This document shows, piece by piece, positions 11,489 to 13,012 of a stretch of 64,000 bases of DNA; position 1 is the stretch's first letter; every line of letters begins with the position of its first letter. Origin of the DNA: Mustelus asterias (Eukaryota); the NCBI RefSeq assembly GCF_964213995.1, contig NC_135801.1, forward strand, positions 90,334,001-90,398,000, read 5' to 3'. The translations under genes and the position numbers were made by a program. The notes below the pieces were generated by a model. That model made no database searches. It was not told the origin of the DNA and saw nothing but the letters and a program-made list of their open reading frames with translations.

Positions 11489-11831
11489 GAGTGGGATGCC
11501 AGCAGTGCAGGGCCACTGCGCATGTGCCGATATCCGTGCTGACAGATCAGAACATGCATAGTGACCCGCTCAGCACTATGCTGCTGGCCTCTCCTGCGGG
11601 AATAGGCCCCGCCCCAGATTTTCAGAGGGAATCCCACACAGAGTGAGGGAGATTCAATTTGAAAATCCCACTGAAAAAACCAACGGGAGTTACTCCCATT
11701 TTCATGCAAATTGGGGGCTTAGAATTTTCTTGGGAGAATCCCGGCCAAAATCTGCATTTATACAGCACCTTTCACAATGTCTCAAAGCACTTGACAGACA
11801 ATTGAATTGTAGTCACTGGCATAAACGTAGG

Positions 11832-12195
11832 CAGGGGACGAGATTAGCCCATTGCACTTGGGGTATGCTGACGTCTGCGATCATGGTTTGCCCTGGCTAG
11901 GCTTGAGTAAAGGGTCAGGATAGACAATGAGATTAAACTGAGGTGTTGCCTGATGCAATTTTTCATAGCCATCTCGGCCTTTGGCTAAGGTGAAGCGTTG
12001 GATCAAGCCCGGGTGCAGGTGAAATGCCTCATCCTGTCAGCTTGGATCTTGTTGGATCGAGCCCAAGATGGGATGCAATGTCACGTTAGCTTGGATCTAG
12101 TTTGTCCCTCACGTGAGGACCATGATTGGACTTCATTTGAATTGGTGTTTTAGATTGGAAATAAAGTACCGAAAGGTACTAATAAAAAAAGTAGT
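11832..12195 (+). mobile_element. snRNA-derived (U1+U2) retroposed element, SINEU-like
   Basis: U1 stem-loop II-like segment 11836-11881 with ATTGCAC loop; U2 5'-like segment 11965-12004; internal hairpins; AATAAAAAAA tail; direct repeat ATAAACGTAGG at 11821-11831 and 12196-12206. Confidence 0.7.
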
Positions 12196-12416
12196 ATAAA
12201 CGTAGGAGATGTTAACAAATGGCAGAACAGGCTCGAGGGGCTTGCTGGTTTATTCCTGCTCCTAATACATATGATTGTTTATCATTCAGAGTGGATGAGA
12301 TGAGCTGGGCTCGATGGCCTTTATCACCCATAATTATCTTGTGAACAGGATCATGGCTGAACTTGTTTTGTTGCTAATGGAAGCTTAGAGAGCAGTTTTC
12401 ATGGGGTGAAATTACC

Positions 12417-13012
12417 AGTAAGAAGTTTAACAACACCAGGTTAAAGTCCTACAGGTTTATTTGGCAGCAAAAGCCACACAAGCTTTCGGAGCTCCAAGCC
12501 CCTTCTTCAGGTGAGTGGGAATTCTGTTCACAAACAGAGCCTATAAAGACACAAACTCAATTTACATGAATAATGGTTGGAATGCAAATACTTACAACTA
12601 ATCAAGTCTTTAAGAAACAAAACAATGTGAGTGGAGAGAGCATCAAGACAGGCTAAAAAGATGTGTATTGTCTCCAGACAAGACAGCCAGTGAAACTCTG
12701 TGGGGGTTACAAATAGTGTGACATGAACCCAATATCCCGGTTGAGGCCGTCCTCGTGTGTGCGGAACTTGGCTATCAGTTTCTGCTCAGCGACTCTGCGC
12801 CGTCGTGTGTCGCTAAGGTGCCTTGGAGAACACTTACCCGAATATCAGAGGCCGAATGCCCGTGAGCAGAATTCCCACTCACCTGAAGAAGGGGCTTGGA
12901 GCTCCGAAAGCTTGTGTGGCTTTTGCTACCAAATAAACCTGTTGGACTTTAACCTGGTGTTGTTAAACATCTTACTGTGTTTACCCCAGTCCAACACCGG
13001 CATCTCCACATT
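12417..13012 (-). mobile_element. Penelope-like element fragment with inverted terminal repeat
   Basis: 12417-12530 is the reverse complement of ~12865-12980; the interior resembles the 3' end of the Penelope at 58250-59130; hammerhead core in both arms. Confidence 0.8.
12878..12918 (+). ncRNA. Minimal type I hammerhead ribozyme motif (Penelope-associated)
   Basis: CAC-CTGAAGA-a-GGGGC-ttgga-GCTCC-GAAA-GCTT-GTG; antisense copy at ~12477-12515. Confidence 0.6.

Follow-up and report, generated by a model that had tools for sequence, protein, structure and literature searches.

A family of retroposons that is a mosaic of three spliceosomal RNAs, U1, U4 and U2, is represented in the window (the whole 64,000-nucleotide stretch of Mustelus asterias DNA analysed here) by a real, old and decayed, 5'-truncated copy. 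We denote this family A and its three sisters B, C and D, labels coined in this analysis. Our reading, to which we assign a probability of about 0.7, is that family A arose by addition of a U1 head to a U2-headed precursor, that its RNA was likely copied by a Keno-type LINE of the Tx1 clade, and that it was likely transcribed by RNA polymerase II from an snRNA promoter. The initial annotation had described the insert as a chimera of U1 and U2 only and a candidate for a multi-copy, SINEU-like family with an snRNA head and a poly(A) tail; the list of sources has to be extended by U4, and the family was recovered at at least 52 full-length places.

The copy occupies positions 11829..12190 of the forward strand, corresponds to consensus nt 32-383 plus an A-tail, and is 89.5% identical to the consensus, which makes it the most diverged among the family A copies compared. 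The exact 11-bp direct repeat that had been annotated as bounding the insert is present on the same strand at 11821..11831 and 12196..12206. However, the downstream repeat does not directly follow the A-run: the A-rich tail, read from the sequence, spans 12180..12190 (forward strand), and five bases (GTAGT, 12191-12195), which recur upstream at 11809-11813, separate it from the repeat. The last three bases of the upstream repeat overlap and match consensus nt 32-34, so that the 5' junction is one of microhomology. The locus recurs in raw-data contigs of sequencing run X1, which show 0 differences across 11757-12047 and across 12053-12342; this run may be the source sample of the assembly. Among the contig joints listed, there was no empty orthologous site for the insertion. 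A 620-nt contig of run X13, from an organism coded differently from that of X1, crosses the 3' junction (window 12024-12418) with 30 differences and 15 gaps, suggesting that the insertion is common to more than one species. About 230 nt downstream of the copy, window 12430-12990 holds another, very-high-copy repeat, with an inverted piece at 12864-13000, that is unrelated to family A.

The sources of the mosaic were assigned by comparison with the genome's own snRNA genes, located with Rfam models; all window features below are on the forward strand. The U1 head (consensus nt 1-84) is host U1 1-95 minus nt 39-49, with 81 of 84 aligned bases identical. The window copy retains stem-loop II (U1 nt 50-95) at 11836..11881, ungapped as annotated and matching the genome's U1 gene at 41 of 46 positions (E 1e-11), with the loop motif ATTGCAC, which we take to be the U1A-binding motif, at 11851..11857. 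The stem sequence GCCC/GGGT is there as well, but it is not a change in the element, because the host U1 reads the same. Next comes a relocated U1 nt 38-51, the 3' strand of stem-loop I, at 11883..11896 (consensus 86-99), which in full copies is predicted to close a long hairpin, and then a remodelled U2 head (U2 nt 20-40) at 11896..11916 (consensus 99-119; 14/21 in the consensus, p=0.009), of which 11896-11909 supplies the strand that, in full copies, would by prediction base-pair with U1 nt 1-13. The second U1 piece previously proposed at 11884-11904 is thus partly U1 (nt 38-51), the rest being this remodelled U2 head.

The third source, U4, contributes nt 23-47 (the 5' stem-loop with the kink-turn motif) at 11920..11944 (consensus 123-147), with 18 of 25 matches in the window copy and 23 of 25 in the consensus. 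The kink-turn pattern is intact in the consensus, and its core is retained in 13 of 40 decayed copies. It is followed by a U4-like, Sm-site-like stretch at 11955..11967 (consensus 158-170; 12/14 to U4 116-129 in the consensus), which is not significant alone (E 2.8) and reads T5 then C, not G. The U2 5' end that had been placed at 11965-12004 was located as U2 nt 7-34 (stem-loop I) at 11972..11998 (consensus 175-202), where the stem is 2 base pairs longer in the consensus than in U2; the alignment of U2 7-40 in the window copy has 28 of 34 matches with one gap (E 1e-4). Two tandem units of reworked U2 (12001-12054 and 12055-12103, together 12001..12103; consensus 205-307) reflect an internal duplication of about 50 nt in family A, and the branch-pairing motif of U2 is not kept in them, as had been noticed. 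The earlier description missed a second U2 piece, derived from U2 nt 44-102, at 12081..12138 (consensus 285-342, where it is 71% identical); its stem-loop IIb lies at 12104-12120. The 3' part consists of AATAAA followed by a 5-bp hairpin with a GAAA loop (12160..12179), including AATAAAGTA, the only tail sequence common to family A and the Keno-type LINE described below. Within the hexamer (window 12160-12165), family position 365 is A in 25 of 39 copies and T in 13, so that the hexamer mainly reads AATAAA or ATTAAA, the pair of canonical poly(A) signals; families B and C carry neither.

The U1, U4 and both U2 segments each outscore all 1000 shuffles (p=0.001). U5 was tried as a source, and no family A segment was significant against 1000 shuffles; inverted U2 as the source of A 105-175 scored 14, against 43 for U4. 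The longest stop-free frame in the 384-nt consensus is 52 aa. The snRNA motifs of family A presumably have the protein-binding roles of their parents, for U1A, U1-70K, 15.5K and Sm proteins.

Family A was delineated by two genome searches, with the window copy and a near-consensus copy as queries, each yielding the best 40 scored full-length matches out of 2,924 and 3,883 first-look candidates, rough figures that may include sister families. Together these gave 52 distinct full-length places; 60 loci were retrieved, 40 of them distinct, and, being top-ranked matches, they are biased to consensus-like copies. These 40 copies are on average 92.8% identical to the consensus (range 89.7-95.9%), and 39 of them share the deletion of U1 nt 39-49. 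This shared deletion at so many places marks a true family derived from master copies, not independent retrocopies. The annotated loss of the U1 splice-site-pairing end does not apply to the family but is the 5' truncation of the window copy: 22 of the 40 copies start at U1 nt 1-4, and in 18 of these 22 the splice-site-pairing 8-mer survives with no more than one mismatch. Poly(A) tails are present on family A copies. Target site duplications (TSDs) of at least 8 nt flank 6/40 A, 10/28 B and 9/23 C copies (cross-paired controls: 2%, 0.7% and 4.7%, respectively), so under this rule 34 of the 40 A copies have none. Only five pairs of A copies share flanks, and none has a common junction. Two observations concern U1 itself: the genome contains U1 gene variants with a different loop of stem-loop I (L207, L210), and four copies (L007, L023, L179, L182) carry a further U1 type, with a different stem, seen only as heads.

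Comparison with the Rfam models gave a mixed outcome. The window copy had no U1, U2 or U4 match, and none for U1 or U2 even at E<=10; of eight fuller copies, five matched U1 with E-values of at most 0.02, the best being 9e-9 (46 bits), all below the gathering score, and the U2 matches (E 0.37-0.6) were not significant. Copy number can be gauged only over an unusable range: seven matches in 214 kb of flanks, one of them family A, translate into 435-95,716 A copies, a figure inflated by clustering. Across 16 sequencing runs from at least four organisms, a fraction of 0.39-0.55 of the words of one family copy was present, and four of these runs show family sequence when compared with the window. 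Family pieces also occur in contigs of three runs guessed to be RNA, from which starts, strand and level are not readable.

Related elements adjoining U4 and U5 genes led to the three U2-headed sisters, which have the same U4-U2 body. Family B is 98.8% identical to its consensus on average (n=28 distinct top copies; 2,321 first-look candidates), family C 93.9% (n=23), and family D 92.1% (n=30). Family A is best read as a D-like, U2-headed master that would have captured a U1 head, because the D body is 90.7% identical to A over A nt 119-383, with nearly identical tails, and U1 5' pieces with differing junctions occur at 4 of 30 D loci, of which the query is one. Further 5' additions of U1 or U2 pieces were found at L027, L120 and L136. 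The kink-turn motif is lost in family B, the youngest, and is thus dispensable for mobility. In family C, both U4 (p=0.0065) and inverted U2 (p=0.02) fit the U4-like piece, so homology may have guided the capture of U4.

Several other observations bear on the family's genomic surroundings. Family B (L111-L140, e.g., G000:C15:78123891-78124221) is very young and includes copies in tandem with a single repeated TSD between them (L125). On three contigs (L166, L171, L174), a variant U2, 85-90% identical to the gene, forms short tandem units that carry B and Keno insertions. One of these B copies includes 30 nt of the spacer that lies upstream in the unit, pointing to either read-through transcription or recombination. 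At L069:1107-1305 (minus strand), a family relative shows an A-tail and then U5 from loop 1 onward, that is, an insertion in a U5 gene copy. The 3' flanks of L144, L177, L179 and L186 contain a shorter, single-unit family (U2 head, one unit and a part resembling U2 44-102), a candidate ancestral form; the single-unit element of L186 runs into the Sm site of U2.

A candidate helper resides in the same genome. The U2 array holds a two-ORF LINE, with a zinc-knuckle ORF1 and an ORF2 encoding an APE endonuclease, a reverse transcriptase (RT) and a zf-RVT domain. U2 nt 38-191 follows this LINE, its head derives from U2, and its tail runs from AATAAAGTA to poly(A). Its RVT_1 match is partial and below the Pfam cut-off, because the frame is broken in the L104 and L105 copies. 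Seven homologues of its ORF1 were found, and the three that are species-named come from two sharks and one skate, in keeping with a chondrichthyan genome. The copies at L104/L105 have the features of Keno (APE endonuclease, RT and insertion in the U2 gene), and the element fits the available parts of the description of Keno as a U2-targeting LINE of the Tx1 clade, including the APE endonuclease, the U2-gene site and U2 nt 38 onward at its 3' side (PMC4640811, PMC4494074). Keno-type copies in U2 genes (L104, L105, L220; G000:C24 U2 array) were amplified with the array as an 8,035-bp unit, and the ORF2 frame is broken in both copies read. Two further loci combine Keno-like and U1 sequence: L107:3630-3800, a Keno-like remnant with a U1 5' piece ahead of the U2 head that ends just before a U2 gene, and the U1 array of L108 (G000:C8), in which each 2.3-kb unit contains both 0.7 kb from a Keno-like 3' end and a short remnant of U1 111-147.

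The sister families use the same target. Joints of a SINE tail to U2 nt 38 yielded 11 matches, against 0 in a reversed control; six of these have a B body, two a C body, and three are tail remnants only. In L175, a Keno 3' end, a duplication of U2 38-52, a B copy and U2 38-191 follow one another, and two of 23 C copies abut a Keno-like 3' end. A neighbouring snRNA, SINE or Keno sequence lies within 150-170 nt of 11/23 C and 5/28 B copies, against 1/40 A copies. The search for a Tx1 partner that had been proposed with the annotation was thus answered in part: the LINE is resident and families B and C sit at its U2 target, but family A gave 0 matches there with an exact pattern, in a family that is 7% diverged. 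From the kinship of A with B and C, we consider it probable that family A, too, was mobilised by a Tx1 LINE, the Keno-type LINE being the presumed helper and not the element itself.

For transcription, the most direct observation comes from L220, where a B-type copy begins at U2 +1 behind 260 nt of U2 upstream sequence (93%). The corresponding exact-pattern search for family A, again 7% diverged, directly behind U1 upstream sequence gave 0 matches. Kinship, the starts at U1 +1, the poly(A) signal and internal T-runs point to RNA polymerase II, and we lean slightly towards transcription of the A master from an snRNA promoter. Under our overall reading, a U2-headed, D-like precursor family would have gained a U1 head and its old U2 head would have been remodelled into a strand that pairs with U1 nt 1-13; RNA polymerase II would transcribe the master from a host snRNA-gene promoter, and a Keno-type Tx1 LINE would copy the poly(A) RNA into new sites, the window copy being a 5'-truncated, decayed product.

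Three other accounts of the family as a whole were weighed. Transcription by Pol III from a box A/box B promoter newly assembled inside the U2-derived body appears improbable. Judged by the box A and box B consensus patterns, box-B-like motifs exist only at consensus 205 and 259, and inspection by eye suggests a looser box A pattern in the internal U2 piece, but a strict-pattern internal box A is absent from all four consensus sequences; the box-B-like motifs, which come from U2 nt 25-31 and a single duplication, are some 200 nt away from the 5' end and missing in family B. Ahead of the tail there are runs of T4, T5 and T6, with such runs inside all four consensus sequences, and copies begin at snRNA nt 1, so that the combination expected of a classical Pol III SINE, a 5' internal promoter and no internal terminator, is not found in family A. 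Still less probable is an origin of the copies, by retrocopying, from a chimeric non-coding RNA gene with a host function and not from a selfish element. Strong predicted folding of the whole element (z -4.4 for A and -8.0 for B) and a compensatory pair change in U2 stem-loop IIb, which separates A and U2 from B and C, would be compatible with such a gene; against it, no conserved source gene was seen, the best match to the near-consensus copy being 91%, and at least four successive families turn over, as in selfish elements. Finally, a one-off chimeric retrocopy, or the sum of independent template-switch products, might explain why the window copy itself elicits no Rfam match, but is refuted by the 52 full-length places and by the deletion common to nearly all copies compared; the annotation itself had named a single copy as one of the outcomes that would overturn it.

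The most unusual predicted property of the full-length element concerns its head. Consensus nt 1-113 is predicted to fold into one long hairpin with the U1A loop at its tip (z=-5.3, 60 dinucleotide shuffles), in which U1 nt 1-31 pair with nt 82-112; within it, U1 16-31 would pair with the relocated strand and U1 2-13 with nt 99-112. In full copies, the splice-site-pairing end and the U1-70K loop are thereby predicted to be closed and the U1A loop exposed. This contrast is smaller than it appears, since in naked-RNA folding of the real U1 gene nt 1-13 are also partly paired (nt 8-10 at 0.87-0.99). The masking strand occupies the place of the U2 head of D, and five differences from U2 nt 20-33 bring the energy of its pairing with U1 nt 1-13 from -4.2 down to -11.7 kcal/mol, a gain in strength with p=0.004 against random and 0.02 against transition-biased substitutions in a test that was post hoc. 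The strand is within two mismatches in 38 of 40 A copies. In the B and C heads, the branch-pairing segment (U2 26-36) is predicted to pair with an inverted copy, with a probability of about 1.0, and A, B and C all have a lengthened internal U2 stem-loop I. Among A copies, there is no covariation for the fold (non-CpG divergence 0.060 at paired and 0.065 at unpaired sites), and the common variants 85G, 221A and 303T, which are not plain CpG decay, disrupt predicted pairs.

Whether selection favoured the masking strand because it keeps the RNA from behaving as a rogue snRNA is, on this evidence, an even bet. A serious contender, which we rate somewhat short of even, is that the hairpin arose as a neutral side effect and that interference with splicing was not selected on: U2 20-33 was already part-complementary to the U1 5' end, or nt 82-112 are a snap-back copy of U1 1-31 made in reverse transcription. 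The U2-ancestral segment already forms the weaker of the two duplexes, with a head fold of -50.4 versus -58.2, aligning A 78-116 to inverted U1 likewise gives a significant score (23, p=0.0045; 29 for direct U1), and the lack of covariation and the post hoc character of the substitution test fit the same explanation. It is opposed by the assignment of the strand to the old U2 head of D by both position and sequence, and by the independent closure of the branch-pairing segment in B and C along with the extended stem-loop I in all three families. A different role for the strand, acting in trans, seems unlikely: it would bait cellular U1, onto which the reverse transcriptase would jump, renewing the 5' 38 nt at each insertion and making a U1-promoter start of the master unnecessary. 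The predicted duplex between host U1 nt 1-33 and A 81-114 is strong (-38.6 kcal/mol), two of 40 copies (L007, L023) have a different U1-type 14-27 segment, L022 has an undeleted U1 1-95 and L027 an extra U1 piece in front, and the failure to find an A copy behind U1 upstream sequence would also be expected; however, the cis hairpin in full-length RNA would out-compete U1 in trans, and the commonest 14-27 segment (exact in 13/40) matches the relocated 3' strand, most others differing from it by scattered single changes.

In the open literature covered, mostly at the level of abstracts, the only snRNA-headed SINEs are crocodilian, and no shark or U4-containing snRNA SINE appears; Repbase and Dfam lie outside this scope, and a library entry is possible. 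The available text of Kojima 2015 (PMC4494074) describes SINEU-1 and SINEU-2, as well as SINEU-3, from crocodilians, with none found elsewhere, attributes SINEU-1 to capture of a U1 head and leaves the mode of transcription open. As far as that text goes, family A resembles SINEU-1 and SINEU-2 in its U1/U2 heads, poly(A) tail, length below 500 nt, repeated gain of U1/U2 pieces at the 5' end, a TSD on some copies but not on others, oligo-T runs inside the element, lack of a recognisable promoter and, presumptively for A, a Tx1 partner from the Keno-related group; the U1-then-U2 layout is that of SINEU-2. Unlike these elements, it has a chondrichthyan-like host, a U4 piece, a self-folding head and a body that is largely reworked U2, and its sisters B and C use the U2 gene site itself; the crocodilian preference for Mariner-N4-type targets was not seen in the 40 A copies, judged from their flanks. 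SINEU-3 (PMC4494074, same portion) is similar in that its body approximates a U2 gene with internal alterations (the 5' ~32 nt and a piece from the middle of U2) and in tandem insertions split by a TSD, here in family B, but in family A the U2 part has an insertion and a duplication instead of a deletion, with U4 and U1 pieces ahead. The mammalian U6/L1 and other snRNA chimeric retrocopies, in the descriptions available (PMC6789731, PMC11838501), likewise join an snRNA 5' to another RNA in retrotransposition, but are mostly single events, whereas one joint is common to the whole of family A. Compared by description, then, family A would work like crocodilian SINEU and falls in the same structural class, set apart from the named families by host and target; its most distinctive points are the U4 module, the switch from a U2 to a U1 head and the predicted self-masking.

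A broader and rather doubtful idea is that the lineage survives by spliceosome mimicry. It would borrow snRNA promoters and a U2-targeting LINE, keep snRNP-binding modules (the U1A loop, the U4 kink-turn and the Sm-like site) and repeatedly evolve antisense strands that lock the splicing-active ends, with the anti-U1 strand of A possibly capturing cellular U1 to renew the head. This genome contains at least four related families, one of them very young, together with a presumed helper LINE and a sister-family copy behind a genuine U2 promoter, so the questions of transcription and partner are testable in it. If selection for self-masking is true, this is a way for a mobile element to harbour spliceosomal sequence with antisense activity and yet leave splicing unharmed.
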